From a virus (lineage: Duplodnaviria > Caudoviricetes), in IMG/VR virus record IMGVR_UViG_2935054407_000001, positions 44,968 through 108,967 of that record: DNA of 64,000 nt; one strand, given 5' to 3'. Positions within the stretch are counted from its first letter, which is position 1; each line of letters opens with the position of its first letter. This document shows positions 4,615 to 60,576 of the stretch, piece after piece. The position numbers were made by a program, and so were the translations under genes. Below the pieces are notes generated by a model. The model had not been told where the DNA came from. It ran no database searches and saw only the letters and a program-made list of their open reading frames with translations.

Positions 4615-4646
4615 AGATTACCTTTTTGGCCTTTTAGCTCGTTAGC
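4615..4646 (-). promoter_or_regulatory. Putative late promoter P1 (GCTAAC-N20-TAATCT), leaderless start
   Basis: Matches shared motif; GTG start 6 nt after the -10 hexamer; abuts a terminator. Confidence 0.65.
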
Positions 4647-4678
4647 GCAGAAAGCGCCGGGCGACCGGCGCTTTCTGC
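4647..4678. terminator. Intrinsic terminator hairpin
   Basis: GCAGAAAGCGCCGG / CCGGCGCTTTCTGC 14-bp inverted repeat directly after a stop codon. Confidence 0.7.
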
Positions 4679-4942
4679 TTAGAGGTCTCGTTCCTCTACA
4701 TGTCGCAGGATGACGGCTCCTTCGTTGGCCATCATCTTGATTCGGTATCGCATCTCTGGCCAGTCTCTATGTTCCGCGAATCCGTAGGCGAGGACGATAC
4801 GAATACCGCGTCCGTGGATCCCGCGCAGATTTTCCGGACCACTGACGTAGACAGCGCGCACGGCCGGGTGCTGGAGGTCACGGATCACGAAGTCAGCTAT
4901 GCGCCGCTCTCGCGCGAAAACCAAGTAGGTCGGGTTGTTCAT
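4679..4942 (-). CDS. Hypothetical protein
   Basis: ORF with ATGA overlap to upstream gene. Confidence 0.7.
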   Translation of the reverse strand: MNNPTYLVFARERRIADFVIRDLQHPAVRAVYVSGPENLRGIHGRGIRIVLAYGFAEHRDWPEMRYRIKMMANEGAVILRHVEERDL

Positions 4943-5280
4943 CGGCCCGGCATCCCGATGTCGTTCATGATCTGCTGGGTGAGTGCCTGGTCCTGGGATG
5001 CTCGGGCGGCGGCCATCATGCCGTGGTGCACCTGGGCGGCCGTCTTCTGCGCCTGGATGTCCTCGCGGGTGACTGCGCAGGCCCCTGAGATCTCATCCTG
5101 CGTCGGCTGCCGTACGACCTTGATCTTGTCGGCCAGCATGGAAGGGTCGTCGGTGGTGAGGATCATGCCATGTGGGGTCATCAGAGTGACGAAGCCCCAC
5201 ACGACCTGAAGCTCTTCCGGCGCGGCGGCCGACTGAGCGGAGGGCGGCAGGTGCAGGGAGGCGGCTCCGGAGCCGTTCAT
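4939..5280 (-). CDS. Hypothetical protein
   Basis: ORF coupled to both neighbours. Confidence 0.75.
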   Translation of the reverse strand: MNGSGAASLHLPPSAQSAAAPEELQVVWGFVTLMTPHGMILTTDDPSMLADKIKVVRQPTQDEISGACAVTREDIQAQKTAAQVHHGMMAAARASQDQALTQQIMNDIGMPGR

Positions 5281-5435
5281 CAGGCAGGGCTCCCCACGGT
5301 GGTGTTCTGGCCGTGGGCCGCCTTGAGGTCGTCCAGCTCCCGGTAGGCGTTGTCGCGGGCCGCCTGCGCGTACAGCAGGTCGTAGGTCAGATTGTCAACA
5401 ATGCGCTCGTGCTTTGATCTCCGGATGAACCACAT
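5280..5435 (-). CDS. Small hypothetical protein (51 aa, MWFIRRSKHER...)
   Basis: AGGAG RBS, ATG, TGATG coupling; below ORF-track cutoff. Confidence 0.65.
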   Translation of the reverse strand: MWFIRRSKHERIVDNLTYDLLYAQAARDNAYRELDDLKAAHGQNTTVGSPA

Positions 5436-5444
5436 GTCGTTCTC

Positions 5445-5939
5445 CTATTCGGTGTAGTCGTATGCGCCCTTGGCTGCGGTCTTGCGCTGTTCCACGATCT
5501 GGTGGTACGGGCAGAAATTGCACAGGAAGGTGTTGGGCCGGTTCCTGTGATTGAGCCCGGCTTCCTTGCGCTCGGCCTTGGTGTCGGGCAGGAGACGCTT
5601 GCGGTCGCTCATGTAGTCACCGCAGTTATGCGTACGGTTGTGCTGCTTCCAGCACTTGGCCGCGTCGAGCTGGAAAGTGTTCTTCGAGTCGTAGAAGTGA
5701 TTGCCGAGACCCTCGGCGGACCGTGCATTGATCTGCTCGATGATCTGGCGGCGGATGTTGTTGTCGCGCCAGTGCTCCTCCTTGATGTCCCGGACCAGAA
5801 GGCCGCCAGCGTGCTCGGCGCCGGACGGGAAACGGTGGCGGGAGACCAGGACATCAAGGAGGTGGTCGCCTTCAACGGGGCCTTCATAATCCGGCAGCTC
5901 TTCCATGGAGCCGCAGGTGCCGCAAAGCAGGAGTCGCAT
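5445..5939 (-). CDS. Cys/His-rich putative Zn-binding protein
   Basis: CGTC, CWKQH...C and LCNFCPYH motifs; RBS present. Confidence 0.75.
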   Translation of the reverse strand: MRLLLCGTCGSMEELPDYEGPVEGDHLLDVLVSRHRFPSGAEHAGGLLVRDIKEEHWRDNNIRRQIIEQINARSAEGLGNHFYDSKNTFQLDAAKCWKQHNRTHNCGDYMSDRKRLLPDTKAERKEAGLNHRNRPNTFLCNFCPYHQIVEQRKTAAKGAYDYTE

Positions 5940-5959
5940 AGTGGTTCGGGTGTTCCTTC

Positions 5960-6778
5960 TCAGGTGATGGGGGAGGTCCAGAAAAGAGGCCAGGTAACGG
6001 CGCCGACGAGGCCGTCTGCCTTGATGTTCTTCTCGTCTTGGAAGTCCATGACGATGGCCTTGGTCTTCGGCCCGAAAACGCCGTCCACGGCGATATTCCA
6101 GCCGCGTTCCTTGAGGCGGGCCTGGAAGAGCTTGATGCTCTTCTTGTCCACGGGTGTGGTGCCGGAGTGGGAGCCGGGCGTGGTGATGCTGATGCCGAAG
6201 TAATGGCCAGCGGGGAGCGGGAACCTCGGGGCGGTCTTGACGCTCGGCCGGTCGGCCTTTGCGGGCTCCGGCTCGATCTGGCCGGGCTCTGCATAGGTCG
6301 GGTAGCCGAAGCCGACGATGTTGCGGTAGGAGCGGTACATCTTCCGGAAGCCGTTTTGGACGTTGCCCTCGTAGGTGACGAGCAGGCCGTCAGCGGTCTT
6401 TCCGGCCACGACGCCGATGTGGTCGATGGCGCTGATGCCCTTGCTCGCGCCCCAGTCGAAAAAGGCGAAAGATCCGATGGTGGCGTGGGTGCCGAAACGA
6501 CCCTTCCTGGCGAACCACTGGGCGTGGTAGGGCGTGTAGGCGAAGCAGCCGGTCTGCCTGAGAGCTTCCTCTGCGCCGTCTGCGCCGTTCTTTCGCTTGC
6601 CCGCTTCGTGCGCAATCCAGGCGAGGCTCATATCGCACCAGGCGGCGCCGTCGAATGCGGAATCGTTGACGCGGTCGCCGTACCACTTGCCGTAGGGGGT
6701 GGTGCCGTTCTTGTCCTCGTAGGTGCCGATCTGCTCCTTGGCCACGGCCAGGAATTCACGGGAACTGATGCCGATCAA
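5960..6778 (-). CDS. Endolysin: CHAP domain plus C-terminal peptidoglycan-binding domain
   Basis: AWCDM, DHIGVV, TYEGN (CHAP); VDGVFGPKT...FQ...ADGLVGAVTW (PG_binding_1). Confidence 0.9.
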   Translation of the reverse strand: MIGISSREFLAVAKEQIGTYEDKNGTTPYGKWYGDRVNDSAFDGAAWCDMSLAWIAHEAGKRKNGADGAEEALRQTGCFAYTPYHAQWFARKGRFGTHATIGSFAFFDWGASKGISAIDHIGVVAGKTADGLLVTYEGNVQNGFRKMYRSYRNIVGFGYPTYAEPGQIEPEPAKADRPSVKTAPRFPLPAGHYFGISITTPGSHSGTTPVDKKSIKLFQARLKERGWNIAVDGVFGPKTKAIVMDFQDEKNIKADGLVGAVTWPLFWTSPIT

Positions 6779-6900
6779 TGCCGGTACTCCTCAACGAATT
6801 CGGGCAGCTCCAGCTCGTCCACGACGTGGGTGGCGGGGTCGCGGTCGTGCCCGGTGAGGCCGTTGCCGTGGCGCGGGCGGGCGGGGACGGGCTCAGGCAT
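6775..6900 (-). CDS. Small hypothetical protein (41 aa, MPEPVPARP...)
   Basis: TAGGAG RBS 5 nt before ATG; overlaps endolysin start. Confidence 0.55.
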   Translation of the reverse strand: MPEPVPARPRHGNGLTGHDRDPATHVVDELELPEFVEEYRH

Positions 6901-6916
6901 AGATGCTCCTAACGCA

Positions 6917-6934
6917 TGCCGGTGTGAAAGACGG
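6917..6934 (+). repeat. Dispersed 18-bp motif, copy 1 (18/18)
   Basis: TGCCGGTGTGAAAGACGG. Confidence 0.85.
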
Positions 6935-7090
6935 TTAGCGGACGCCAGAGGTGCGCCGGGAGACGCGGAATTCGATGGCAGTGGGGGCGGAAACGGCGCC
7001 GTCACGGTTCGGCGTGGAGTCGTATTCCGCGCCCTCACGGACGCCCTTAGCGAGACTGGCGTTCATGGATCGCGGCTGCGGATAACTCAC
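6935..7090 (-). CDS. Small hypothetical protein (51 aa, MSYPQPRSMNASLAKG...)
   Basis: GAAGGGG RBS then GTG; downstream of promoter P2. Confidence 0.65.
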   Translation of the reverse strand: MSYPQPRSMNASLAKGVREGAEYDSTPNRDGAVSAPTAIEFRVSRRTSGVR

Positions 7091-7132
7091 GTCCGACCCC
7101 TTCCATTGCTGACGATGAAACGTACAAGCAAT

Positions 7133-7164
7133 AGATTATGGGGACGGATCAGACTTTTTATAAT
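7133..7164 (-). promoter_or_regulatory. Putative late promoter P2 (ATTATA-N20-TAATCT)
   Basis: Shared motif; spacer TCCGTCCCC can pair with GGGGTCGGA over the RBS. Confidence 0.6.
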
Positions 7165-7674
7165 TCAGGTTCGCCACGACGGCATGAAGGCACGCAGGCG
7201 ATCAGCCGTGTATTGGCTCGGGGCGAACTTGTCTTCCTTCTTGCGCAACTCCAGCGGGCCGACGACCTCGGTCTTGCCGTTGTTCACGAGGTACTCATCC
7301 GGATTTCCCTGCGGAGCCCATTTCTTGCCCTGCGCCTGATGCTCCAGCGATGTCGCCATGTTGAAATCACGAGGCCAGTCGTAGTCGCCCGGATCGATCC
7401 GGATCCCCGCATGCGGGCCGGTCGGCCCAGGCCGGGAGTTGATCTTCAGCTTGACGCGGTCCAGCAACCGGTCAGACCGGCGGCTGGGCACAGTACCCAG
7501 ATAGCCGTCCGGGTACTGGGCTTCTGGCGTACGCGGGTCATCACCCGAGCGGCGCGCGTCCAGCACGTCACGCCAGCCGACGGGGAGCTGTCCCCCGCCG
7601 CCGGTCGTGAGTGCCTCGGACTGGCCCGCCCCTTGCGGGACGTACCAGCTATTGGAGTCGTACGGGCGAGCCAT
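7165..7674 (-). CDS. Hypothetical protein
   Basis: 169-aa ORF, coupled to upstream gene. Confidence 0.8.
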   Translation of the reverse strand: MARPYDSNSWYVPQGAGQSEALTTGGGGQLPVGWRDVLDARRSGDDPRTPEAQYPDGYLGTVPSRRSDRLLDRVKLKINSRPGPTGPHAGIRIDPGDYDWPRDFNMATSLEHQAQGKKWAPQGNPDEYLVNNGKTEVVGPLELRKKEDKFAPSQYTADRLRAFMPSWRT

Positions 7675-7910
7675 CAGACCCAGATCGACTTCTGATCGCC
7701 GCTCTGCGGCGGCTGCTCGGAAGCGCCGACGACACCGCCCAGGGCGCGGCCGACGCCGTTCTGTGTCGCGCCAGAGGCGAAGGACCCCACGCGGGAGGCG
7801 GCCCCATTGACAGCCGTGCGCGCGGCTGCGCCACCGGCAGCGCCAGCAGCCTCACCGGCCAGCATCGGCAGCGCTCGGGCGGCGATCGACGCGACGAGTG
7901 GCCACACCAT
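7674..7910 (-). CDS. Small Ala/Gly-rich protein
   Basis: TAATG and TGATG coupling on both sides. Confidence 0.7.
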   Translation of the reverse strand: MVWPLVASIAARALPMLAGEAAGAAGGAAARTAVNGAASRVGSFASGATQNGVGRALGGVVGASEQPPQSGDQKSIWV

Positions 7911-8230
7911 TACATGCCCTGCCCGTACTGCCGACGCGCGTAGAAGTCGCGGTTGCCGATCGCACTGCGGACGAGCCGGGTGTTGCGCAGGTTCGCCTCA
8001 GCGGCCGGGTCGTTGCCGACGACCATCTGAGCGCGCGGGGCGTAGGAGGCGCCGTGGCGCTCGTGGGTCTGACGCCTAACGCCCTCGGTCAGCGCAGCCT
8101 CGATCATGCCGCCGACACCGCCGTGCCGCCTGACCTCCGTGGTGTACGGAGACGAGGCACCCGAGACGTTGTTCACCGTCGCCGCGCTCGTGCCCATAGT
8201 CGGGAACTTGGTCGTGGTCTTGTCACCCAC
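7910..8230 (-). CDS. Hypothetical protein (MGDKTTTKF...)
   Basis: GGAGG RBS then GTG at 8230. Confidence 0.75.
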   Translation of the reverse strand: MGDKTTTKFPTMGTSAATVNNVSGASSPYTTEVRRHGGVGGMIEAALTEGVRRQTHERHGASYAPRAQMVVGNDPAAEANLRNTRLVRSAIGNRDFYARRQYGQGM

Positions 8231-8278
8231 GATTTCCTCCAAAGCGGTTATTTGAAGCCCGAGCAGCGGATCGCTTCC

Positions 8279-8310
8279 AGGCTACGATCAATCCACGAGA
8301 ATCTTGTAAA
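8279..8310 (-). promoter_or_regulatory. Putative late promoter P3 (TTTACA-N20-TAGCCT)
   Basis: Shared motif overlapping the end of the SpoVS-like gene. Confidence 0.55.
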
Positions 8311-8590
8311 CCAGAGCGCTCACCTTGCCGTCAGCCATTTCCACGGTCGTGAAACCGATGCGCGCGGCAAGGGTGATGCCACGCGAGCCGACATACGACT
8401 GAGCGATGGCGATACCCTTCGAGGTCTGGTTCACCGCACCCGCGCCAATGGCTCGCAGAGAAACCTGCTTGCCGTCGTACACCGCGTGCGCGATGGCGCT
8501 GGCCAGCTTCGCTGCGTCACTGCTGGCAGACACGCGCAGAAGAACGCTGCGATCCTCGTTCTTCTCAACACCTGCATTCTCGGAAACCAT
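8288..8590 (-). CDS. spoVS: SpoVS-family (Alba-like fold) protein
   Basis: LRVSASS...LASAIA...LRAIGAGAVNQTSKGIAIAQSYV...GFTTV matches the SpoVS signature; AAGGAG RBS before ATG 8590. Confidence 0.85.
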   Translation of the reverse strand: MVSENAGVEKNEDRSVLLRVSASSDAAKLASAIAHAVYDGKQVSLRAIGAGAVNQTSKGIAIAQSYVGSRGITLAARIGFTTVEMADGKVSALVYKILVD

Positions 8591-8633
8591 GTTTTTCTCC
8601 TTTTCGGGTTTCCCAATCTGAGCCGTCCAATTC

Positions 8634-8665
8634 AGATTAGGGAAAAGGAGAGCAATGTTTGTAAC
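8634..8665 (-). promoter_or_regulatory. Putative late promoter P4 (GTTACA-N20-TAATCT) inside an RBS-masking hairpin
   Basis: TCTCCTTTTC in the spacer pairs with GAAAAGGAGA (RBS); CCCTAATCTGA pairs with TCAGATTGGG. Confidence 0.7.
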
Positions 8666-8667
8666 GC

Positions 8668-8700
8668 GAAAAACCCCCGCCCGCATCAGCGGAACGGGGG
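8668..8700 (-). terminator. Intrinsic terminator ending the replication block
   Basis: CCCCCG...CGGGGG stem followed by TTTTT on the minus strand. Confidence 0.65.
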
Positions 8701-12806: not shown

Positions 12807-13716
12807 CGTCGCTCCAACAGCGGGAGAAGTAGGGGCAGTCGGTGCAGGTCTTGGAATCGCGGGCGAACTCACGCGCCGGAATCATGCCGGTGTGAAAGAC
12901 GGCTTCCTTGATCGAGGTGGCCTTCTCAAGCAGCGGCTCGACGACGGCCATGTCCAGCGAGATCGCGAATTCCTTGACGGCCTGGTTGCTCTTGTACTCA
13001 TACAAAAAGGTCCCGCGCCGGACCCCCAGGCCCATGAGGCGCATCGTGATGTAGAGGTAGATCTGGAGCTGGCGGACGTGCGACGGCAGCGGCTCCTGAA
13101 GGTCGGCCCACAGGCCGTCCAGGTCGTAGAGCTTCTTCCCAGCCTCATCGCTGGCGAAATACCACTCCTTGAGCACCTCGGGCGCGTCCATGCGAAGCGT
13201 TCCCATGCCGATGGTCTTGATCTCGATCAGCCGGGCCTTCTCCAGAAGCATGCCGTCGGAGTGGCCCTCGATCAGGAATTCCTTCTCGGCCCGGATCGGC
13301 ACCTCGGCATACGTCACCGCGAAGGACCAGCAGCGCGGACACTGCTTGGGGTCAAGACGCAGGTCGGTGACATGGCCACAGTGCAGGCACTTCCACTGGC
13401 CATACAGGTCGCCGCTCAGCCTCAGCCAATTCTGCCATTTGTCATGCAGAGCGTGGCCGGTGGCGAAAATGCTCTCCATCTGGAAGTTGAAATCTGGCCG
13501 GGCAGGCATCTTGCCAGCGCGGGCATCCACGATCCGGTAGTACGTGGAGCGGGCGCACCAATCATCCTTGGCCATCTCGGAGGGGTGGATGACGTCGGCA
13601 CGCCGGTCGGTCGGCTTGAGCAGCTCGGCCGCGACGTTCTCTGAGATGTCTCCCAGGACGTCCCAGTGCGTTCCCTTGCGCCTGCTGATCTCGGCGAGAG
13701 TGCCGCTCAGCTTTAT
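12568..13716 (-). CDS. Cas4-like PD-(D/E)XK exonuclease (probable ATA start)
   Basis: IHPSEM...WCAR, GHALH, EGHSDG...IEIKT, QLQIY, CTDCPYFSRC; internal CxxC/CxxC ribbon. Confidence 0.85.
   Translation of the reverse strand: MKLSGTLAEISRRKGTHWDVLGDISENVAAELLKPTDRRADVIHPSEMAKDDWCARSTYYRIVDARAGKMPARPDFNFQMESIFATGHALHDKWQNWLRLSGDLYGQWKCLHCGHVTDLRLDPKQCPRCWSFAVTYAEVPIRAEKEFLIEGHSDGMLLEKARLIEIKTIGMGTLRMDAPEVLKEWYFASDEAGKKLYDLDGLWADLQEPLPSHVRQLQIYLYITMRLMGLGVRRGTFLYEYKSNQAVKEFAISLDMAVVEPLLEKATSIKEAVFHTGMIPAREFARDSKTCTDCPYFSRCWSDVAPDQPNTEPAGADQPGQPAGTARAGKSRTGAARAARRVPAATAEGPDGAVGRRADGAVQPPQRMGRLRREPTGIGGDR
12885..12902 (+). repeat. Dispersed 18-bp motif, copy 3 (18/18)
   Basis: CATGCCGGTGTGAAAGACGG, identical over 20 bp to copy 1; intragenic. 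Confidence 0.85.
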
Positions 13717-14102
13717 GGCTGGTCGTCTTCCTCGTCCGCTGCCGCTGCCAGAATTTCCTCTTCCGGTGCGTCCGGTTCTGTTGGCGGGTGCCATTCCCAT
13801 TCCACCTCCTTCAGGGGGATCCCGTCGGCCTTGGCCTCTTGCCGCAATTTGTGCCGGTCGTGAGGAAGCATTCCGCCCCACACGCCCGCGCTTTCGTTAT
13901 TGACACAAGCAAATCGAAGGCAGTAATCCCGGACCGGGCAAGGGCCTTCGTAGATGTCACTGCCGTTGCAGACCCCCAAAACCTCGTCGTACTGCGAGGT
14001 GTCGAACCAGGGATCTTCCTTCTCGCTCGGCCGAGCGTGCCGCACGCATCGCGCACCGCGTCCGGCCCAGTCGATCGATGGGATTCGGAGCCGCAGAACC
14101 AC
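13713..14102 (-). CDS. whiB: WhiB-family transcription factor
   Basis: W...ARC...DPWF...VC...CPVRDYCLRFA...GVWGG. Confidence 0.92.
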   Translation of the reverse strand: MVLRLRIPSIDWAGRGARCVRHARPSEKEDPWFDTSQYDEVLGVCNGSDIYEGPCPVRDYCLRFACVNNESAGVWGGMLPHDRHKLRQEAKADGIPLKEVEWEWHPPTEPDAPEEEILAAAADEEDDQP

Positions 14103-22725: not shown

Positions 22726-22959
22726 TCAGACTTGCTGGTCGTGGACGTGGGACTTGTTGATCGCCAGATCACGGAGCCGGATGATGTCGTCGGCCAGGAG
22801 GCGGTTAACCGACTCCTTGGCGCGGTTCTCAAGGTCTTCGAGCGTTGTGCCGGGCTCGTCGGGGAAGTCGGAGTCGTTCAGCTTGACCTGGTAGCTGATC
22901 TCTTCCCACTCGAAATTGCCCAGGTTGACGCGCGTTCCTCGGCGTACGGAAACTTCCAT
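22726..22959 (-). CDS. Hypothetical protein (VNLGNFE motif)
   Basis: Coupled ORF. Confidence 0.7.
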   Translation of the reverse strand: MEVSVRRGTRVNLGNFEWEEISYQVKLNDSDFPDEPGTTLEDLENRAKESVNRLLADDIIRLRDLAINKSHVHDQQV

Positions 22960-23390
22960 CAGGCGGCCACTTTCTGAACCAGGGCGGCCTGTGCCGCGTC
23001 GAACAGGCTTTGCACGCGGCGGGTGAAGTGTGTGCGGCTGATCTGGGCGTTGTAGCGCTCCAGAACGCCCTCTTCGCGGGCGATTCTCCGCATTCCGAGC
23101 ATCATGTCTTCGCTGTAGTAGTAGCGAATGCCGTGCTTGGAGCCGGTGGCCGTCGTGGCGACGTTGGAGTGGAACGGGCTCGCGGGGAGGGTTCCGTTGG
23201 TGCGCCAGAGGCGGATCACGCTGGGCTTGCGGTTGAGGAACTCGGCCAACGACGCGATTTCCCAGAAGCGGACTTCCCTGGTCGCGCCGCGTACGGTGAC
23301 TTCCTTGGTGATGAAGGGAAGTTCGTTGAGGCGGGCGCGGTCTTCGTCGGCCGGGAGGGCTGACCAGAGGGGACGGCCGGGATGCTCCAT
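22959..23390 (-). CDS. MerR/excisionase-like HTH DNA-binding protein
   Basis: WEIASLAEFLNRKPSVIRLWRTNGTLP...RYYS. Confidence 0.75.
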   Translation of the reverse strand: MEHPGRPLWSALPADEDRARLNELPFITKEVTVRGATREVRFWEIASLAEFLNRKPSVIRLWRTNGTLPASPFHSNVATTATGSKHGIRYYYSEDMMLGMRRIAREEGVLERYNAQISRTHFTRRVQSLFDAAQAALVQKVAA

Positions 23391-32204: not shown

Positions 32205-34427
32205 CTAATTGTCGAGGTACGGGATCTTCCCGAATTCCGGATACTCGACGATGACTCCAGTTGGCGCAGATTCGTCGAGCGCCTGCTTGAGAATGTAGCT
32301 GCGGCGCGCGAAGTCTTTGTAATAGAAGGTGCCGCCGGAAGCGTCATTGTGGCCGTAGCGGTACCACAGATCGATGTTGCCCGACTGCCATGAGAAGTAG
32401 TCTTCCGGCGCGATTCCCTCTTCGAGAAGATGGCCTGCCACCGCGAATTCCTCTTCGGAGATCTGCGGCTGGGTGATCTGCGGTTCCCACCGCATAAGAA
32501 CTCCGCCGTTCGCAGGTGTTTGGAAGACGGCGACGATGCGCTTCCAGCCTTCCCCGAGTGCTGGGGCAGCACTTCCCTCGGTGTAGGAAGCAGGCTTCGC
32601 GAGCTGGGCACCCGTGGCCGGGTTGTAGACGCGCAGGAAGAGATCGCCCATCCCGGCCGACTTGTGGACGTAGGCCGAGACGGTGTACCACGCGCCGCCA
32701 CGCAGGGTGTCGTACTGCGTGATGACCTGCCGGGAAACACCTACCGGGAACGTCACGCGCTGGGCCTGCTGGGTGTCGCTGGGAAGCGGCGATGCCACGT
32801 CCTGGGAAGTCGTCTGCGTGCCCCCGGTGAGGATGGTCAGCTTGGTCTTGGCGATGTTCAGCCGGTCCGGATACACGTAGGGGACCAGTGAGTTGGCCAT
32901 GCGATACAACGTCGGCCCATTGGCCCCGGCGATTTCCACCTGATACATGGTGAATTGTTGCCAGTTTGTGGCCGCGACGTTTTCGAATCGAATTCCGGGG
33001 ACGAGGTACGCGGCGCGGTTCCATAGGGTTCCGCTGGAGGTGGCGACGTCCTCGGGTACGACGAAATCGCAGTAGACGCGTACCCATTCGGCGCCGTTGG
33101 CTCCGGTGTTCACACCGCCGTTGCTGTTGGCGCGGATGCTCAGGAGAGGGTCGGTTTCGTTCGCCCCGAAAATCGCGAAGTCAGCGAACCCACCAACGGG
33201 AATCGCCTGCCCCAGATCCAGGCTTCCGAAGGAAGACCCGGTTCCGTGGCCTTCCGACTGCCCGGCGATGGCGGCAATCAGGCTACCGATGGAAAAGGCA
33301 GTTCCCGACCCTGCCAGTTCGGGCGGGAAGGTCAGTGCCACACTTCCCGTGGAACTTCCCGTGCCGCTCAGCGAGATCGGGTAGGTGATGTCCAGCGCCA
33401 CACTGCCGTCGGAAGCGGCGGTGCCGCTCGCGCCGACGTAGATCACCGAGTAGGCATCGAGACTTCCGCTGGAGTCGGCGCTTCCACTCGCGGCGGCCGG
33501 GCCGAACTGCCACAGGGCCAGGCGGCCGGTTGAGCTTCCCGTACCGCTACCGGCCATGCCGACCAGGACGGCTTCCATGCGCCCGGTGGAAGCAGCGGTG
33601 CCCGACAGCTCGGGAAGGAGCACGACGTAGGTACCCAGGCTGCCGGTGGAGAAGGTATCGCCGTGCGCCTGGGTGGTGGCGACACCGAGAGTGGCTGACG
33701 CATGGGGCGTCCCGGACCAGGTGTAGCCAGGGAAGCCGCCGTCTACGTAGGCCGTCTCCACAGTGCCTTGTTCGAGCTGGAGGGCGTCCACCCATGCTGA
33801 GGCGGTGCCGCCGTCCACCGCCGGGTAGTGGGTGTTGACCTCCTCGTAGTAGTCCACCCACCAGAGGGTGACCTGCTGGTAGGGGGCGCCTCTGCGCAGG
33901 TAGTTCGGCAGCGAGTTGTAGAAGCTGTACGCAGCAGAGCTACTGCTATAGCTGTTCGAGCGCGCCATGAGGGTCGTCTCGGAGTGCGCGGCCTGGTAGT
34001 ACACGTTGCCGACCGCGATCCGCACCATGAGCCGGTCGGCTCCGGCGCGCGGCGCGATGTTGCGCAGCGCCCACCGGCCGGTGGCCACCACCTGGAGCGT
34101 GGCCCGCTGCTGACGCTGGGCGGCGCTCTGGCCGGGCAGCAGATCATAGACGGTGATCGTGATCCGGTTGGCCGCCGGATCCTGCTGGGCGGCTCGGGCC
34201 ACGACGTAGCCCGACAGGGTGAAAGGACCCGAGCCGATGTCGATGGGCACGGTGGTCTCCATGCCCTTGCTCTGCTCGCTGGTGGTGGTGACCGCGATCT
34301 GGAGGCCGTTGTTGCCGACCTGCTTGTTCGCGGTGCCGCGCGACAGGCTCGCCCCGTCAGGGCTGCTCCAGGTGGCCGTGTTCGTCTCGAACGACGGGTT
34401 CGGCAGGTAGTTCGCGTAGTTCGTCAC
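32205..34427 (-). CDS. Tail fibre / receptor-binding protein with carbohydrate-binding-like modules
   Basis: NYLPNPSFE start, DALQLEQG...WSGTPHAS module, repeated SGTxSSxGxL units. Confidence 0.7.
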   Translation of the reverse strand: MTNYANYLPNPSFETNTATWSSPDGASLSRGTANKQVGNNGLQIAVTTTSEQSKGMETTVPIDIGSGPFTLSGYVVARAAQQDPAANRITITVYDLLPGQSAAQRQQRATLQVVATGRWALRNIAPRAGADRLMVRIAVGNVYYQAAHSETTLMARSNSYSSSSAAYSFYNSLPNYLRRGAPYQQVTLWWVDYYEEVNTHYPAVDGGTASAWVDALQLEQGTVETAYVDGGFPGYTWSGTPHASATLGVATTQAHGDTFSTGSLGTYVVLLPELSGTAASTGRMEAVLVGMAGSGTGSSTGRLALWQFGPAAASGSADSSGSLDAYSVIYVGASGTAASDGSVALDITYPISLSGTGSSTGSVALTFPPELAGSGTAFSIGSLIAAIAGQSEGHGTGSSFGSLDLGQAIPVGGFADFAIFGANETDPLLSIRANSNGGVNTGANGAEWVRVYCDFVVPEDVATSSGTLWNRAAYLVPGIRFENVAATNWQQFTMYQVEIAGANGPTLYRMANSLVPYVYPDRLNIAKTKLTILTGGTQTTSQDVASPLPSDTQQAQRVTFPVGVSRQVITQYDTLRGGAWYTVSAYVHKSAGMGDLFLRVYNPATGAQLAKPASYTEGSAAPALGEGWKRIVAVFQTPANGGVLMRWEPQITQPQISEEEFAVAGHLLEEGIAPEDYFSWQSGNIDLWYRYGHNDASGGTFYYKDFARRSYILKQALDESAPTGVIVEYPEFGKIPYLDN

Positions 34428-40494: not shown

Positions 40495-40552
40495 GTTTTC
40501 ACCCGTTCACATCTGGAAATCCGGCTCCTACGAATCCCAGTGTATTTGGGTG

Positions 40553-41278
40553 TTATACGCCTTTTAGAATGTCAATCTCGGCCTGCATTTTTTCGACCCT
40601 TTCGGAGAGCTGGGCGACGGCTCCCCACAGAACACCGAGCATCCCCGCGAGATTCACATGCTGGTCTTGGCGAACCAGATCCGGCAGCATTTCCGCGATG
40701 GGGCCGACGCGCGTGATGACGGGATCGGCGTGTTCTGCGTTGTAGTTCCACAATTTGGCGGGCGCATCTCGGACCACCTGCTCGGGGTCGAAGTCCAGCT
40801 CTCGGATGTTCTCCTTGAGTTCCCGGCTGGAGCCGTAGACGAAATCGGCTGCGACGCAGTTGACATAACCCGCACCGTCCTTGCCCATGCAGTGCACTTC
40901 TCCGCCGGTCAGATTCACCGACGACGAACTTCCAGAGACGATCGCTGGGCTTTTCGGAGCCCGGACCTTCACCGGAGATTCCGGGTGCGTCAGCTCCAGC
41001 AGCTCTTCGTCATTGTGCAGGAACGCGAACTTCTTGACGTCATGCGGGATGAAGTACTGCGGATACCGCAGATCGCTGTGAAGGAACCGGATCCATACCT
41101 TCTCCCCGACTTTCAGTTTGGAGATCGTCATGGAACCCGGATCGGCCCACTCCGAGATGGTCTTGCCCAGCACATCAGGAACCCGTACCTTGATGCGCCG
41201 CTTCTTTTCCGGGTCCTGGGTGGAGACGACGAGCCCCCAGAAATAGCCCTCGTGAACCGGGCGCTTTTCCTCGCTCAC
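40553..41278 (-). CDS. Baseplate spike (gpV/gp5 OB fold) with C-terminal peptidase S74-like chaperone
   Basis: G.VV...DP....RIKVRVP...WA...VG..VW..F...D...P; SSRELKENI...WNY...GPIAE; GGAGG RBS then GTG 41278. Confidence 0.8.
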   Translation of the reverse strand: MSEEKRPVHEGYFWGLVVSTQDPEKKRRIKVRVPDVLGKTISEWADPGSMTISKLKVGEKVWIRFLHSDLRYPQYFIPHDVKKFAFLHNDEELLELTHPESPVKVRAPKSPAIVSGSSSSVNLTGGEVHCMGKDGAGYVNCVAADFVYGSSRELKENIRELDFDPEQVVRDAPAKLWNYNAEHADPVITRVGPIAEMLPDLVRQDQHVNLAGMLGVLWGAVAQLSERVEKMQAEIDILKGV

Positions 41279-47692: not shown

Positions 47693-47724
47693 ACGTTAGG
47701 AGAATTACCGCCTCAGATATTAAC
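47693..47724 (-). promoter_or_regulatory. Putative late promoter P5 (GTTAAT-N20-TAACGT) inside a 16-bp RBS-masking inverted repeat
   Basis: Perfect IR 47650-47665 / 47698-47713 covering the AGGAG RBS up to the TTG start. Confidence 0.75.
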
Positions 47725-50617: not shown

Positions 50618-50649
50618 AGAGTAAGGGCGGAAACACAAACGTTTATAAA
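50618..50649 (-). promoter_or_regulatory. Putative late promoter P6 (TTTATA-N20-TACTCT)
   Basis: Shared motif in AT-rich intergenic region; GCCCTTA can pair with TAAGGGT. Confidence 0.6.
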
Positions 50650-52020: not shown

Positions 52021-52052
52021 ATTCTCAGCTCTGCCCGATTTTGTTTGTTAAT
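52021..52052 (-). promoter_or_regulatory. Putative late promoter P7 (ATTAAC-N20-GAGAAT), leaderless start
   Basis: GTG start 6 nt after the -10, same geometry as P1; abuts a terminator. Confidence 0.55.
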
Positions 52053-53175: not shown

Positions 53176-53207
53176 AGTTTGGAGTTCGCCCCGGAAAAAA
53201 TGTTAAT
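53176..53207 (-). promoter_or_regulatory. Putative late promoter P8 (ATTAAC-N20-CAAACT)
   Basis: Shared motif; CTCCA can pair with the TGGAG RBS. Confidence 0.55.
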
Positions 53208-54290: not shown

Positions 54291-54559
54291 AGCACCCTAC
54301 GGTCCACGTGAACGGCCGGGAGTACGAGGTCGTCGAAGCGAGCCAGTCCGTGAAGGACGCCACCGACGGCGCAGCCGAATGGGTCCTGCGGCCGACCGCG
54401 CGACAGCAAGCGCTGGACCGCTTGAACGCTTTCCTGGACGCCCGGCCGAAGCAGGCACGCGGCCTCCACGCCAACGCCATGGCTACCGTACGTACCGCTG
54501 CTGGGGACTTCGACCTTCTCCGGACTGACCTGGAGCTGCTCTTGGGCAGGCAGGTGTGA
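54287..54559 (+). CDS. Hypothetical protein (MKHPTVHV...)
   Basis: AGGAGG RBS, GTGA overlap. Confidence 0.75.
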   Translation: MKHPTVHVNGREYEVVEASQSVKDATDGAAEWVLRPTARQQALDRLNAFLDARPKQARGLHANAMATVRTAAGDFDLLRTDLELLLGRQV

Positions 54560-54978
54560 AGCTGCGGCTCCGCTGCGAAATTCGGGTCGATCGAGACCCA
54601 TGGATGGACTGGTGGAAGGACGGTGAGGAGGACGTGGATCTCGGCGTCGGCATGGTCCTCTCCTCGCACATCACATACCTCGCCGGATTTGCTGACACCG
54701 ATGCCGTCGTCCGCTGGAACAGCGCCAGGCCGTGGCATCATGACTTCCTCGTGGAGGTCTCCGCGAAGTCCTGGGAGAGTTGGGCGGGAATTCGGCCCGG
54801 CAAGACGCGCCGTGACGTCATCGACTACGTGACCTACAACATCCCCTACGGATTCGCGGCCCTGGAGCAGACCAAGGCTCAGGTCACCTGGAAGGGCATC
54901 ACGCCCGTGGACTACAGCACCCCTGAGAAGCGACACGAGCTGCTGTTCCGCTGGCCCACGATGAGGATGAGCGAATGA
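54556..54978 (+). CDS. Hypothetical protein
   Basis: GTGA overlap. Confidence 0.75.
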   Translation: MKLRLRCEIRVDRDPWMDWWKDGEEDVDLGVGMVLSSHITYLAGFADTDAVVRWNSARPWHHDFLVEVSAKSWESWAGIRPGKTRRDVIDYVTYNIPYGFAALEQTKAQVTWKGITPVDYSTPEKRHELLFRWPTMRMSE

Positions 54979-55184
54979 GCGAAGACCAGTGGATCCTGGA
55001 GTACACCGATCACGGCGTCTTCTGGCGGGAAGATGCTGGAGACTCTCGCAGGCAGGCCCTTGTCTACGCCGATCTTCTGATGGTTGAGCACGGCGCGTCC
55101 CTTGCCCGGCTGATCCGGCCGGACGGTGTGGTGGAGCTGGAAGACAAGGCGCTGGACGAGGCGGCTTTCAACTCCGACAAGTAG
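54975..55184 (+). CDS. Hypothetical protein
   Basis: ATGA overlap. Confidence 0.7.
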   Translation: MSEDQWILEYTDHGVFWREDAGDSRRQALVYADLLMVEHGASLARLIRPDGVVELEDKALDEAAFNSDK

Positions 55185-55232
55185 CCCTCTCCCACACGAT
55201 CAAGCACTATCCCCGAAGAGGAGCACCCCAGC

Positions 55233-55541
55233 ATGCACACCACCAAACTCCCCGAGCTTCACCCAGCCGCCGCAGCCCTCACCGCCTTCCGTGAGGTGAA
55301 CGGCGAGGGCCGCACCTACACCGTCTCGGAGGCACCCGGCGGACGGGGATCCATCGTCCGATCGCTGAACCGGGCGCGGGCCGTCGGCTATGTCAAGCCG
55401 CCTGAGCGCGATTGCTACGCGGTGCTCGATGTGCTGAACGGTGATGACGAGCCTGTGCAGGAGTTCGCCATCCCCACAGCGAGGGCGTTCCGCTGGTGGT
55501 ACCGGCACCTGCGCCTGCGAGTTGAGCGCGACGACGCTTGA
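55233..55541 (+). CDS. Hypothetical protein
   Basis: GAGGAG RBS; followed by terminator. Confidence 0.75.
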   Translation: MHTTKLPELHPAAAALTAFREVNGEGRTYTVSEAPGGRGSIVRSLNRARAVGYVKPPERDCYAVLDVLNGDDEPVQEFAIPTARAFRWWYRHLRLRVERDDA

Positions 55542-55662: not shown

Positions 55663-56754
55663 TCAGTTGGTCTCGATCAGAACCACGGACTGGTCAGTGA
55701 TCAAACCCAGTCCCCAGATTGCGTACCAGGCCAGCAGGTGCTCTCGGCCGAAGTCCTGGATGCCGCCGTCGCGAAGCTCGACCGGCAGGCTGATCGCGTG
55801 GCCGAAGGCGTTGTCACCCAGAAGGACAGCCTGGTACACGGACTGACCTGTGGGAACGTCGATCGCCTTGCCGAGCGAGACGTCCTCGTACTTGCCGCCC
55901 AGCTCCGCCCGAGTGGCGCTCGTCAGCTTGCTGACCTGGGTGCTCTCGATGAAAACGACATCGTCGATACGGCCGATCTCACCGATCTGGAAGTTCCCCG
56001 GGGACGCGTACTGGGTCATGTTGATCCAGTTCGGGTCGTCCCTCAGTCGGCGGCTCTGGTGAGGATGCACGAAACAGACGTACGAGTCCCCGAGCCTGGG
56101 GGTGTTCTTCGTGCTGAGGGTCTCGACGCCGTCCTTGATCGCTGAGACCGTGAGGTGGTAGTTGCCGGTCAGGCCCATGCGCATGGAGGTCGTGCCGTTG
56201 GGCTCGCCGGTCACCTGCGTGGCGGTCGGAAGGGTGCCCAGATCGAACGGGCTCATCCGCGTCTGCGCGGCCGAGGACATGATCTTGTCGTAGCCGTAGA
56301 TGTGCGACGTTGCCTGGAGCAGGGTGTTTCTCGCGCTCTCATCCAGGTAGGTAGCCATGTTACGCCCGAGCAGACGGGACGCCGTGGCCATAACGTCGTC
56401 AAACGACGCATTCAGGAGCAATTCGGTCACGCCGATGGCATAGCCGTGCTCACTGACAGTAATTGAGAACTGGGTGGCAGTCAGCGCGGCGGTTTGCATC
56501 CGCACACCTTCAACGAGCTGACTGGCTTTGCCGAGGTTGTTATACCTGGTAAAATTGATGGACAAACCGGGCTGAACGCCCAGCTCAGTCTTCTTCACGG
56601 CGAACTGTTCGAATTTTAGCACAGGCATCGCCTGGAACAGAATCTCCTTGCTCCAGATGGTCTGGATGACCGGAGATAGCTGAGAGTTAGCACCGCCCGT
56701 GTACGCCGTCGGGTTGGCGCTGAGGTTGGGGGTACCGGTGATTGCGCTAGGCAT
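55663..56754 (-). CDS. Major capsid protein, N4-gp56 family (HK97 fold)
   Basis: WSKEILFQAMP...FEQFA, EHG.A...TE, YVCFVHP.Q..L..D, GEIG.I..V.FIE, DFGREH.LAWY; ATG at 56754. Confidence 0.92.
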   Translation of the reverse strand: MPSAITGTPNLSANPTAYTGGANSQLSPVIQTIWSKEILFQAMPVLKFEQFAVKKTELGVQPGLSINFTRYNNLGKASQLVEGVRMQTAALTATQFSITVSEHGYAIGVTELLLNASFDDVMATASRLLGRNMATYLDESARNTLLQATSHIYGYDKIMSSAAQTRMSPFDLGTLPTATQVTGEPNGTTSMRMGLTGNYHLTVSAIKDGVETLSTKNTPRLGDSYVCFVHPHQSRRLRDDPNWINMTQYASPGNFQIGEIGRIDDVVFIESTQVSKLTSATRAELGGKYEDVSLGKAIDVPTGQSVYQAVLLGDNAFGHAISLPVELRDGGIQDFGREHLLAWYAIWGLGLITDQSVVLIETN

Positions 56755-57534: not shown

Positions 57535-59227
57535 CTAGAGTTTATTCTCCGGATCTCGGCGTTCCGGCGTTTTCGCGCCATAAGCCTGTGTCACGAGTTC
57601 GGTCATCAATGTTTCTTCTGCACCTGCCATGACTGCCGGTTGCCCGATAGCCGTGCCAGGCGTGTTGCCCGCAGAATCCGAATTCGTAGTCCCAGTGAGC
57701 GGGGCGGCGGTTCCGTCACCTTGCGGTGACATTCCCGTCATTTGGAGAATAGCAGAAGCGATTTGCGCGGTAATAAGGTCCAGGGCGCCCGACTCCTTGA
57801 CGTCGCGCACCTGCTCCTCAAACAGTTCTTGCAGTTTCTCATCGGCGAATTCCACACCCATCGCCTTGAGGGCGCCGCGCTTGCTTTCGAGGCCCAGGCC
57901 CATCTTGAGCTGGATCTCATTGAGCTTGATGAGGTCGTCCACCGGCAAGGGCGGAGGCCATTCACAAGCCGTCTGGTAGACGAGCGGGTCGCGCGGGTCG
58001 ATGACCTCAGGCTGGCCGGGCTGAATGATGCCGTCTGTGGCCTGGTCATAGCGAAGGGTCGCGGGCTCGAACAGGAAGAGCGTGCGCAGGATCAGCTCAT
58101 TGATCCTGCGAAGTCCCTGCGTGTACTGGCGCTTTTTCGCATTGTATTTCTGCATCATCGGGAACATCTGGAGTGCCAGGGCAACACCGGACGTATTAGA
58201 AATCGGCTGAGCTTGGCCCAGAGCGTTCTCCGGCACGCCCGACATCTCATGCATGGAGCGCTTGAGCATCTCCAGAAATTGGAGCGGCCACTGGAGATCA
58301 ACGCCGTTCTCCAGGTTGAAGACCTTGGCATCCGGCGGCAGTCCGCCCCAGATTTTTCGGGCGCCCTTCTCCAGGTTGTTCACGCGGGCACCGGTAATCA
58401 CGGTAACGGGCGCCGAATGATAATTGATGATGTCGGCTATGGCCACCGCCAGCTCGTTGAACTGCTGGTTCAGGGGGACGATGTCATCCATGTCCGACAG
58501 GCCCCACGGCGATCCGGAGACCGCCACATTGGGGATGTGCACGATCGGGATGACACCCAGCGGATTCTTCCGCTCTTCGAGGAGCTGGTCATCTACCCAC
58601 TCTTGGATGGAGTCCTCTGTGATGATCTCCTGGTAGGTGAAGACCTTTCGTGTCCCGTCATTTGTGGTAGCCCAGAATTTATAACGGAGGCGGAAGCGAA
58701 TCAATCTTTCCTTGTCGTGCGGGTGCCATTCTGGGAAGCAGTGAGCCGCGTTCAGCGGCAGCACCCGCACACGCCCTGGCCGCCAATTTCCGGCCGGATC
58801 AGTGAAGTTCCGCTCGTACGCGACCTTGACGAAGCAGTCGCCCGACACAGCGCCGTTCTCGGCCATCTCGGATAGCACGGTCGGCTTGTCGTTGTCTGTC
58901 TCCCACACGCGGTTGAGAAGCGCTGGGATGATGTGCTCGTATTGCTTGGCAGACGTGAAGCTGACGCCACGAGAGAACGTGAAGTCGTTCGAGAAGCGGG
59001 TCAGCGCGCGAACGTAGTTGAACGTAAGTTGGGGCTCCCCATATTCTCTGCGGCTAGCCCAATGGAAGCCCAGGTCAATAGAAGGCCCAATTTCTTGCGT
59101 ACCTGTTGAGGCGCGGCCCGGATACTTCCCACTCCTGGTCAGACAGTTCGACCAGACCCAGTGGGGAGATAGACACAGACAGACCGCTGGCCTGCTGTGA
59201 CGGGGCATAGAAATTGAAACCGCTCAT
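57535..59227 (-). CDS. Portal protein (SPP1 gp6-like), interrupted by TGA and a +1 frame change at 59074-59077
   Basis: GGGAGG RBS + ATG 59227 gives 50 aa then TGA; the rest (LGFHW...NPLGVIPIVHIPN...GLSD...TSGVAL) continues in the +1 frame to 57535. Confidence 0.85.
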
Positions 59228-59277
59228 GGCATCACCTCCCTTCACGCAAATAGCCCGGATTGCTGATCACACAATCC

Positions 59278-59309
59278 AGGCTATTTGAGTTGATTTGGGA
59301 AGTTGTAAT
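59278..59309 (-). promoter_or_regulatory. Putative late promoter P9 (ATTACA-N20-TAGCCT) in a hairpin
   Basis: 15/16 IR 59247-59262 / 59272-59287; ACTTCCC can pair with the GGGAGGT RBS. Confidence 0.7.
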
Positions 59310-59312
59310 GCG

Positions 59313-59864
59313 TTAAGAGATACCGACCATCGGAATGCTCATCTGCGGCGTCAGATCGGAAAGGTCGAGATAGGGGGGAAGGGGAACAGTCGCCGAGTCT
59401 ACGGACGAGTACACGTCGTAGCCGGAGTGGCGCTCGTCCCAGGTGTACGGTCGCGCCACGGGCAGGATGACGTGCGGCAGCTCAGGGAGGTCAGCGAACT
59501 CCAGCATCACCCAGCCGTGCCAGTCCTGATCGCGTGCGGGCACGGACGAGGGGTACTTCAGTGCCACCCAGCCTGCGCCCGGCTCGGGAATTTCCCTCCA
59601 GAGGGAAGCCGCCACCGGGAACGCCTGCCAGTCTCCCGGCTCGTCAGGGAAGGCGTAGAAGACCGAGCGGACACGCCCTGCCGCGCCCGGCTTTCGCACA
59701 ATCGCCACCTGCGCCGAACTCACGCTCATACCGGCGGGGACGGTCATCTTGATTGCCCACGTGGTGGGGAACGGCGTGCCTGAGATGCTGGTGGTCACGG
59801 CCCAGGCCGGGACGGTCTGGCTCAGGAAGGTGTAGCCAGAGCCTCGGGGAAGATCGATGGACAA
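59313..59864 (-). CDS. Hypothetical beta-rich protein
   Basis: GAGG RBS, TTG start. Confidence 0.7.
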   Translation of the reverse strand: MSIDLPRGSGYTFLSQTVPAWAVTTSISGTPFPTTWAIKMTVPAGMSVSSAQVAIVRKPGAAGRVRSVFYAFPDEPGDWQAFPVAASLWREIPEPGAGWVALKYPSSVPARDQDWHGWVMLEFADLPELPHVILPVARPYTWDERHSGYDVYSSVDSATVPLPPYLDLSDLTPQMSIPMVGIS

Positions 59865-59888
59865 GCGGTACCTCTCTCTCTCGGTCTG

Positions 59889-60098
59889 CTAGTTGGTGCG
59901 GGCGACGGCGGCGTTGCTCCAGAACATGACCTGCTCCAGGTGCGTGATCGCCAGCGCCTTCTCACGCCCTTCGGGGAGCATCTCGTTCAGTGATCCGGCC
60001 AGATTCCGGCAGAGGCGGCGAACGGTCTCATGGGCCGTCACCGCTTCCTCGTCCGGCGGGTGGTGGCTGAACCGGTTGTCGAGATCAGCAGGGGTCAT
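59889..60098 (-). CDS. Acb2/Tad1-like helical-hairpin protein (putative signalling-nucleotide sponge)
   Basis: RFSHHPP...VR....LA.......PEGREKALAITHLEQVMFWSNAAVAR; TGATG-coupled ATG at 60098. Confidence 0.6.
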   Translation of the reverse strand: MTPADLDNRFSHHPPDEEAVTAHETVRRLCRNLAGSLNEMLPEGREKALAITHLEQVMFWSNAAVARTN

Positions 60099-60508
60099 CA
60101 GTCGTTGACCTGGGCCGGGTTGGTTCGCATGTAGTGGCCACCGGAGCGGACCACCTGCTCGAACTCGACCTCGCCGTTGTTGCCCAGGCCGCCGTGGGCG
60201 AACTCGCCCAGGTAGGTCGGGGCCTCCACCCACGAAGCCGAGCCGACGTGCGCACGCTGCTGGAGGGTCTTCTCCGGCGGCTGAACCCAGGTCGGAGCCA
60301 CGCGGTTGGGGCGGCCGGGCGCGGTGACGTATCCGTTGTTCACGCCAAGGCTGAAGTCGTTCGGGACGTCAGTGTCGCTCGCGATCCCCTCCTCGAAACG
60401 CAGGGGGCCGCGCCGAGCGGGGTTGGACGCCATCTTGCGCTCGTAGACCGGCGTAACCCGCTCGGGGATGGCCGGGTGCGGGGAGAGGGGAGAAACGTTT
60501 TCTGCCAT
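60098..60508 (-). CDS. Hypothetical late protein
   Basis: GAGGAG RBS; follows promoter P10. Confidence 0.8.
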   Translation of the reverse strand: MAENVSPLSPHPAIPERVTPVYERKMASNPARRGPLRFEEGIASDTDVPNDFSLGVNNGYVTAPGRPNRVAPTWVQPPEKTLQQRAHVGSASWVEAPTYLGEFAHGGLGNNGEVEFEQVVRSGGHYMRTNPAQVND

Positions 60509-60544
60509 TAGATGAAACTCCTCGAAAAGCGTAGCTACGTTTCC

Positions 60545-60576
60545 AGGCTAGAATCCGAGGAGTTTCATTTGTTAAC
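60545..60576 (-). promoter_or_regulatory. Putative late promoter P10 (GTTAAC-N20-TAGCCT) with a 13-bp RBS-masking IR
   Basis: ATGAAACTCCTCG in the spacer pairs perfectly with CGAGGAGTTTCAT (IR 60512-60524 / 60556-60568). Confidence 0.75.

Follow-up and report, generated by a model that had tools for sequence, protein, structure and literature searches.

The 64,000-nucleotide stretch of virus DNA analysed here (the window: positions 44,968 to 108,967 of IMG/VR record IMGVR_UViG_2935054407_000001, i.e. the right-hand 64 kb of a 108,967-bp virus record) carries a recurrent two-box element, nTTAnnA and TAnnCT with 19 nt between them and often G(G/A)AA behind the second box, which occurs on the sense strand only. 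This element probably marks a phage-specific, activator-dependent class of promoters that heads the virion and lysis operons of this phage and of its prophage relatives. PHROG and Pfam scans identify the source as a temperate actinobacterial myophage of ~109 kb, and the G+C content of the window is ~64%. All coordinates refer to the window unless "genome" is stated; genes were called with a simple, purpose-written caller, so that the positions of some starts are approximate.

Read in descending coordinates on the minus strand, the virion genes run from terL (60580-62148), the portal gene (57535-59208), and the major capsid gene (55663-56754) through head genes, tail sheath and tube, tape measure, and baseplate to the holin gene (31872-32189). 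The replication block (8737-31300) includes a WhiB-like gene (13713-14102), and the lysis/left block holds a SpoVS-like gene, an endolysin, and a queuine tRNA-ribosyltransferase-like gene. Outside the window, the left 45 kb of the genome encode two integrases, an Lsr2-like protein (Pfam scan), and several regulators.

Definition of the element

The initial annotation had proposed ten sites of the form nYTAnn-N20-nAnnnT as a non-canonical late promoter class, and all ten hexamer pairs were found on the minus strand where it had placed them, with exactly 20 nt between the hexamers. As a detector, the degenerate pattern failed: YTA-N23-ANNNT matched 32 times in the window (both strands) versus 35.8 ± 5.5 times in shuffled sequences, with 77 of 100 shuffles reaching 32. 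The pattern as written is not enriched, and the earlier consensus is too loose. Minus-strand intergenic matches in the window numbered 11 at N20, 9 at N19, and 1-5 at each of ten other spacings (N14-18 and N21-25). A de novo motif search over 84 upstream regions ranked a different motif on top; the proposed one did emerge, in noisy form, after two stronger motifs had been masked.

The sharpened element differs from the earlier pattern by an A directly after the upstream hexamer (A7), which is conserved as well as the TTA and which, together with T2, T3, and A4, makes up the best-kept upstream positions. Measured from TTAnnA, the distance to the downstream box is 19 bp at all sites. In the downstream box, A2 is kept in 16/16 own sites and 23/23 sites of distant relatives, and T6 in 16/16 and 22/23, respectively; judged from these counts, the best-kept positions of this box are those of a primary-sigma -10 element, matching the TANNNT of canonical promoters in which A2 and T6 are best conserved. 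The consensus in the distant relatives reads aTTA(c/a)(a/c)A, 19 nt, TAnnCT, followed by G(G/A)AA, and the two bases before the -10 hexamer are mostly C there (12/23 and 15/23). Apart from their first two and last two positions, the spacer columns hold almost no information.

A canonical -35 element is lacking. The best match to TTGACA 16-18 nt upstream of the -10 box reached at most 3 of 6 positions at 14 of 14 sites, which bears out the earlier remark that no TTGACA lies at 17-18 nt, and TTGACN-N16-19-TANNNT occurs nowhere on the sense strand of the whole genome. Scans for sigma-70-type promoters gave no excess of matches, none of which coincided with the sites described here. An extended -10 (TG one base before the hexamer) was likewise absent, with no TGn in the 12 own sites examined. 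What these boxes suggest is a TTA-containing upstream box at about -37 to -32 combined with a host-type -10 box, in line with the initial proposal.

Placement of the sites

The sites (Table 1) are confined to the virion block (9 sites; 18 gaps of at least 35 nt), the lysis/left block (4 sites in window positions 1-8700; 5 gaps of at least 35 nt), and the far-left block outside the window (2 sites). As had been claimed, none lies in the replication block, where no match was found in positions 8701-31800 despite 12 gaps of at least 35 nt. The label "late" would follow solely from the kind of genes that lie downstream. One earlier reading had to be revised: the "N19 variant" reported before terL is better read as an N20 site with ATTTAT as its upstream hexamer. 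This type of box, ATTCAT or ATTTAT at N20, is present in two relatives, one of which (D8015, see below) has ATTCAT before terL while the other (G038) has both.

Table 1. Predicted promoters of the two-box class and genes of the two candidate activators. Bits are scores on the independent matrix trained on distant prophages; window coordinates unless "genome" is stated.
Feature	Position	Strand	Details
terL promoter	62177..62208	-	ATTTAT-N20-TACGCT; 16.1 bits; box in loop of terminator-like hairpin
Promoter of gene 60098-60508	60545..60576	-	GTTAAC-N20-TAGCCT; 28.2 bits; spacer pairs with the gene's ribosome-binding site
Portal promoter (gene start 59208)	59278..59309	-	ATTACA-N20-TAGCCT; 20.5 bits; -10 box within hairpin
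Head-gene promoter (52094-53139)	53176..53207	-	ATTAAC-N20-CAAACT; 19.2 bits; ortholog site in G038
Leaderless promoter	52021..52052	-	ATTAAC-N20-GAGAAT; 11.4 bits; GTG start at 52014, 6 nt after -10
Promoter of gene 49897-50448, then tail sheath and tube	50618..50649	-	TTTATA-N20-TACTCT; 24.6 bits; after terminator-like hairpin
Promoter of gene 46793-47650, then tape measure	47693..47724	-	GTTAAT-N20-TAACGT; 13.3 bits
Promoter of gene 40255-40494 and baseplate genes	40539..40570	-	ATTCTA-N20-TACACT; 15.0 bits; absent from earlier list
Candidate holin promoter, weakest listed	32292..32323	-	ATTACA-N20-TACATT; 8.4 bits; absent from earlier list
Promoter of SpoVS-like gene (8288-8590)	8634..8665	-	GTTACA-N20-TAATCT; 22.7 bits; after terminator-like hairpin
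Promoter of genes 7165-8242	8279..8310	-	TTTACA-N20-TAGCCT; 22.1 bits; overlaps 3' end of SpoVS-like gene
Promoter of small genes and endolysin (5960-6778)	7133..7164	-	ATTATA-N20-TAATCT; 2.2 bits
Leaderless promoter	4615..4646	-	GCTAAC-N20-TAATCT; -0.5 bits; GTG start at 4608, 6 nt after -10
Two further sites outside the window	genome 5315-5346 and genome 3854-3885		far-left block; missing from earlier list
WhiB-like gene, earlier candidate activator	13713..14102	-	replication block; Pfam Whib E 4.9e-8
MerR-superfamily helix-turn-helix gene, rival candidate activator	22959..23390	-	replication block

Several sites directly follow terminator-like hairpins. The seventh nucleotide after the -10 box is a purine in 10 of 12 sites, and at 4615, 52021, and genome 3854 the box is followed by a start codon at a distance of exactly 6 nt. 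This distance is kept in the D8015 orthologs of all three sites and in the ortholog of the 4615 gene in the prophage G154, where ACTAAC-N20-CACAAT is followed by an ATG 6 nt after the -10 box. Such an arrangement is that of leaderless mRNAs, a common type in Actinobacteria. For the small gene behind the 7133 site, the start probably lies 27 nt upstream of the call (7066-7093, minus strand), with GTG here and ATG in D8015.

Conservation in related prophages

A megablast search with 36 kb of the window against deposited phages returned no close phage, and the capsid protein shared 65% identity with its counterparts in Streptomyces phage BRock and related phages. A search with terL led to a prophage in Nonomuraea sp. 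SYSU D8015 (hereafter D8015; host genome of 12.4 Mb), which is collinear with this phage at 70-82% nucleotide identity, and four further, distant prophages with terL proteins 65-70% identical (G276, G211, G154, and G038) were found among the 401 genomes of Nonomuraea's order that were searched. These five prophages are the relatives referred to throughout.

I built a two-block matrix from 12 own sites and ran it on the four distant prophages with spacings from N13 to N27 at a threshold of 12 bits. On the sense strand, N20 gave 4, 9, 5, and 5 matches in the four prophages, i.e. 23 in all, versus 38 for the 14 other spacings together, and none on the antisense strand at N20. These matches precede orthologs of terL, the gene that follows terL, the portal gene, the pre-sheath gene, head genes, baseplate genes, the holin gene, the SpoVS-like gene, the genes at 7910-8242 and 3658-4608, and others. 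The reverse test used a matrix trained solely on 21 sites of the four distant relatives and applied to this genome, again at 12 bits: it peaked at N20 on the sense strand, with 11 matches versus 0-5 at each of 12 other spacings, and gave none on the antisense strand at N20. Eight of the ten sites listed earlier scored 11.4-28.2 bits on this matrix, a level reached by a background fraction of at most 1.2e-5. The N20 peak is present in five related genomes, and the cross-genome comparison thus supports the idea of a non-canonical promoter class conserved across related phages.

Site by site, an N20 promoter precedes the ortholog of gene 60098-60508, which follows terL, and that of the pre-sheath gene 49897-50448 in 5/5 relatives. 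N20 sites are also present at the terL orthologs of G276, G211, and G038, before the portal orthologs of D8015, G276, and G211, and before the SpoVS-like orthologs of D8015, G211, G154, and G038, and the 8279 site has its counterpart in G154. Both window sites that were missing from the earlier list have counterparts as well: the 40539 site is conserved in D8015 and G211 has one at the matching place, and the 32292 candidate, which falls within the 3' end of the preceding gene some 100 nt before the holin gene, recurs as an identical string in the D8015 prophage, with an N20 site before the holin gene in G211.

The closer comparison with D8015 left a clear footprint. Over 13 orthologous pairs, the core of the upstream box (T2, T3, A4, and A7) was identical at 50/52 positions and the -10 core (T1, A2, and T6) at 39/39, as against 380/520 in the upstream flank, 205/247 in the spacer, and 58/78 in the discriminator. 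Box-to-box spacing was unchanged at 13/13 sites. Where the -10 box has changed, the TAnnCT form was kept (TAATCT to TAGGCT at 4615 and TAATCT to TAACCT at 7133); an upstream box had changed from GCTAAC to GTTAAC. At one D8015 site a deletion in the upstream flank ends precisely at TTAAC, and at another spacer indels cancel each other out.

Within the complete 12.4-Mb D8015 genome, the strict motif DTTAMMA-N19-TANNCT gave 5 matches, 5/5 of them in the prophage (reversed control, 2), and the loose motif TTAMMA-N19-TANNNT gave 9, of which 7 were in the prophage (reversed control, 8). This near-absence outside the prophage fits a specificity factor encoded by the phage.

Predicted hairpins in the promoter spacers

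At many sites, the spacer and -10 box show complementarity to the leader of the promoter's own gene. Predicted duplex energies between promoter and own leader averaged -20.8 kcal/mol compared to -14.95 ± 4.0 kcal/mol for mismatched pairs, a mean that none of 20,000 permutations reached, and the own leader ranked among the top 3 at 22 of 48 sites. At 8 of 11 own leadered sites, 9-18 of the 18 nt that make up the ribosome-binding site and start codon pair with positions upstream of the predicted start. At 47693, the predicted partner of the ribosome-binding site and start codon is a stretch of ~20 nt that covers the spacer and the beginning of the -10 box. In D8015, a compensatory double change (G-C to A-T) has occurred in the hairpin at 59278, and in each of the four genomes with the portal-gene site the hairpin there takes first rank, with unrelated sequences.

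The non-conserved spacer would thus often form the 5' arm of a hairpin whose 3' arm carries the ribosome-binding site of the gene. I predict from these folds that the spacer hairpins mask translation on read-through RNA: transcripts arriving from upstream would be translationally masked, while RNA started at the promoter would be open.

How the promoters may be recognised

The arrangement suggests that the host primary-sigma holoenzyme recognises TAnnCT, often with G(G/A)AA, as its -10 element and starts transcription ~7 nt after this box, in three operons at the start codon itself. The upstream box would then lie at about -38 to -32 and, taken as the hexamer TTAnnA, would resemble a -35 element without its G, 19 bp from the -10 box. 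Such a spacer is too long for unaided recognition, and a phage-encoded factor would therefore be needed. This factor, if made earlier in infection, would make the promoters fire; the WhiB-like (Wbl) and the MerR-like proteins are the two conserved candidates. A phage-borne sigma factor found no support, as Sigma70_r2 had no match at E up to 1 in a six-frame search of the whole genome, a search that was positive in 11 of 14 control genomes and that very divergent sigma factors could escape. The LuxR-type protein and the small proteins with two helix-turn-helix motifs of the left arm were set aside, having no counterparts in the contigs of the distant prophages, as was the conserved 152-amino-acid neighbour of the MerR-like gene (23395-23853), whose predicted fold (predicted local distance difference test score, pLDDT, of 82) gave no informative matches.

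The activator proposed in the initial annotation, the WhiB-like protein, is a tentative and rather doubtful choice. It would bind region 4 of the host primary sigma, direct it to the TTA box, and so activate the late promoters. Its Wbl domain is recognised by Pfam, and the gene is found at the same place in D8015 (83% identity), G211 (41%), G154 (45%), and G038 (42%), i.e. in every relative with coverage. W12, W32-F33, and the W of GVWGG occupy the places of the four aromatic-patch residues, and according to the part of PMC13013590 consulted, Wbl proteins bind region 4 of sigma-A through this patch, and binding to it was found for three phage Wbls that were tested. No other conserved protein here belongs to a family known to act via sigma region 4. 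Since the WhiB-like gene lies in the replication block, synthesis of its product plausibly precedes virion gene expression. On the other hand, it has no AT-hook (no RGRP-like hook), no basic tail, an acidic C-terminus, and an unusual cysteine spacing, and nothing in the evidence gathered links it to the box. The roles of phage WhiB proteins remain to be established experimentally, according to the part of PMC8612146 consulted, and literature searches (supplementary files aside) returned nothing relevant that ties phage WhiB to late promoters.

It seems unlikely, too, that the MerR-superfamily protein of 22959-23390 is the activator, in which case it would remodel the overlong spacer of 19 bp that separates TTAnnA from TAnnCT, as regulators of this family do, although the geometry is what such a protein would require: MerR regulators act at primary-sigma promoters with 19-20-bp spacers (PMC8113463, in the part consulted), and the spacer is 19 bp at all sites and kept in 13/13 in D8015. 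The gene is conserved in all covered relatives, with 3/5 orthologs matching Pfam MerR_1 (best E 8.6e-8) and 2/5 matching MerR, and the best Foldseek rows for its AlphaFold model (mean pLDDT 79.7) are mostly MerR-family regulators. These structural matches are weak, however (E 0.099 or worse; best PDB profile match E 0.029), and this phage's own copy gets no further than HTH_17 (E 0.011). As dimers, MerR proteins bind to a pseudo-palindrome within the spacer (same source, same part), whereas the spacers here share almost no sequence and no such operator.

Phage BRock does not help to choose between the two. Its gene order is common with this phage and it carries orthologs of both the WhiB-like (37% identity) and the MerR-like protein, which counts against either candidate since no N20 promoters could be found there with the matrix. 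At 52% G+C, and with 52 canonical TTGACN-N16-19-TANNNT promoters on its sense strand (0 of them in its virion block), it is unsuitable as a comparator: it cannot decide between WhiB-like and MerR-like proteins because canonical promoters are present there and an N20 peak is not.

Another explanation dispenses with a phage activator altogether. Host polymerase with its primary sigma might use these sites alone, on the strength of the -10 box and discriminator, with the upstream box serving as a weak -35 or as the target of a silencer (Lsr2) or repressor, and with timing set by derepression. Actinobacterial primary-sigma promoters often function with a weak or absent -35 element, and many are without a good one. 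When the box is read one base further right, 3 sites agree with TTGACA at 5/6 positions and 4 sites at 4/6, with a 19-nt spacer, and the Lsr2-like protein encoded by the phage also speaks for this explanation. I nevertheless regard this explanation as doubtful: the G of TTGACA is never present in the box (A in 21/23 distant sites and G in 0), the spacing does not vary by a single base across six genomes, and the motif is almost missing from the rest of the D8015 genome. It is highly improbable that the element is no promoter but an RNA element, in which TAnnCT-GGAA in a hairpin loop would be a processing or protein-binding site of long late transcripts. Site-specific hairpins do flank or include the -10 box at many sites, one of them with a compensatory change, but the best-kept positions are those of a -10 element, the start codon follows 6 nt after the box at three sites, several sites come directly after terminators, and Rfam recognised no family in the window. 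Moreover, spacing that is fixed to the base despite variable stems argues for recognition on DNA rather than RNA.

Several observations weigh against an activator-dependent promoter class, or against parts of it, beyond the possibility that host polymerase might use the sites alone under control by repression. Sites 4615 and 7133 score low on the distant-site matrix, although both are conserved with unchanged spacing in D8015. One matrix match, within the portal gene (58400-58431), is probably false. BRock, with the gene order and both candidate regulators shared, showed no N20 peak with the own-site matrix. As for the hairpins, 26 of 48 sites rank their own leader below the top 3, which makes the hairpin frequent but not universal; five likely false matches (5568 and 67983 in this phage, 12136 in D8015, and 8657 and 5390 in G211) were excluded before the test; and the folds are predictions that take the predicted transcription start as given.

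Neighbouring genes and other repeated sequences

The SpoVS-like gene (8288-8590, minus strand; Pfam SpoVS E 1.2e-18) lies behind one of the strongest N20 promoters and is retained in every covered relative, BRock included. In the middle of the virion block, a plus-strand cassette (53254-55541) holds six small genes to which the scans assigned no function. It is headed by a promoter-like site at ~53260, one of only two canonical TTGACN-N16-19-TANNNT matches in the whole genome, and appears to be transcribed from the prophage by host polymerase. The queuine tRNA-ribosyltransferase-like gene (3-1418, minus strand) and a DpdA-family gene (genome 36952-37692, plus strand) suggest 7-deazaguanine modification of the phage DNA, to which such genes have been linked.

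The top de novo motif of the upstream regions was the asymmetric 14-nt sequence GTCTTTCACACCGG, with 20 copies genome-wide at no more than 2 mismatches. Copies in the window, on the minus strand, lie at ~6932, 11204, 12900, 26613, 29655, and 40315, and 13 more at genome 12.9-36.1 kb. The 17 best copies (no more than 1 mismatch) are all co-oriented with the local genes, and some are inside coding sequence. D8015 has only 1 match at no more than 2 mismatches; there, 11 of 12 aligned orthologous places carry a shared alternative version, GTCT(A/C)(C/T)C(A/T)AACCGGGA, and the twelfth is deleted. The encoded amino acids change along with the version of the motif. This concerted change suggests a phage-specific DNA-binding partner; the motif copies may be stoperators or phage-specific promoters.

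A further sequence, ACACACAGAAAGGCGG, is conserved 5-8 nt before the start codons of ~18 small plus-strand genes at genome 26.9-39 kb and resembles an extended ribosome-binding or start-associated sequence. The inverted repeat ATGTTGCA-N16-TGCAACAT, located in a divergent intergenic gap next to an integrase gene (genome 7222-7253), may be an operator, and the motif search suggested further copies of it.

Discussion

In its layout, a phage-specific box in place of the -35 element and at a constant distance from a -10 box of host type, the promoter class resembles systems in which a phage appropriates the host sigma factor. The middle promoters of phage T4, with their MotA box and AsiA, have the same layout, are found on the phage alone, and depend on a phage protein made earlier, as would be expected here. 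Unlike the T4 box, which lies at about -30, the box described here lies at about -38 to -32 and has another sequence, and no AsiA or MotA homolog was found. MerR-dependent promoters likewise combine a primary-sigma -10 element with a -35-like hexamer at 19-20 bp (PMC8113463, part consulted), compared to 19 bp here, and a MerR-superfamily gene is conserved in the phage. They differ in having a pseudo-palindrome in the spacer and TTGACA in place of TTAnnA, and the MerR-like protein of the phage is short and without a recognisable effector domain.

Wbl-dependent promoters, such as those of WhiB7, share an A/T-rich element at or just upstream of -35 and a primary-sigma -10 element, and the phage encodes a Wbl protein with the sigma-binding aromatic patch. 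Here, no canonical -35 hexamer stands beside the box and, unlike WhiB7 with its AT-hook (PMC13013590), the phage Wbl has none; a Wbl that reads a TTAnnA box is not known. The Mor- and C-dependent middle and late promoters of phage Mu also have a good -10 and a poor or badly spaced -35 element, and their activators are small helix-turn-helix proteins of the phage. These bind a dyad that lies upstream of the -35 region and extends over it, but no such dyad was seen here and no Mor-family match was obtained. The predicted hairpins recall the fold-back inhibition of IS10 and IS50, where RNA from outside pairs with the ribosome-binding site and RNA from the element's own promoter lacks the pairing segment. 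The difference is that the putative masking arm lies inside the promoter spacer here and is predicted at many operons of one regulon. Literature searches on phage WhiB, late promoters, and actinophage intergenic motifs (supplementary files aside) found no description of the motif.

A more specific scheme, which I regard as speculative and rather improbable as a whole, would join these parts: the Wbl protein, alone or with the MerR-like protein, would retarget region 4 of the host sigma to TTAnnA, 2-3 bp upstream of the usual -35, at promoters that carry masks for the ribosome-binding site, so that late genes would be translated only from transcripts of their own promoters. If the Wbl protein is indeed such a sigma appropriator, a DNA motif and a regulon would for the first time be defined for a phage WhiB. 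With 12 to 15 conserved phage-specific promoters per genome, two conserved candidate regulators, and a sequenced related lysogen, the question is directly testable. Should the promoters depend on a phage factor, they may provide orthogonal expression parts for high-GC actinomycetes, and the ribosome-binding-site masks, if real, would be a way for a prophage to silence its lethal late genes against stray read-through.

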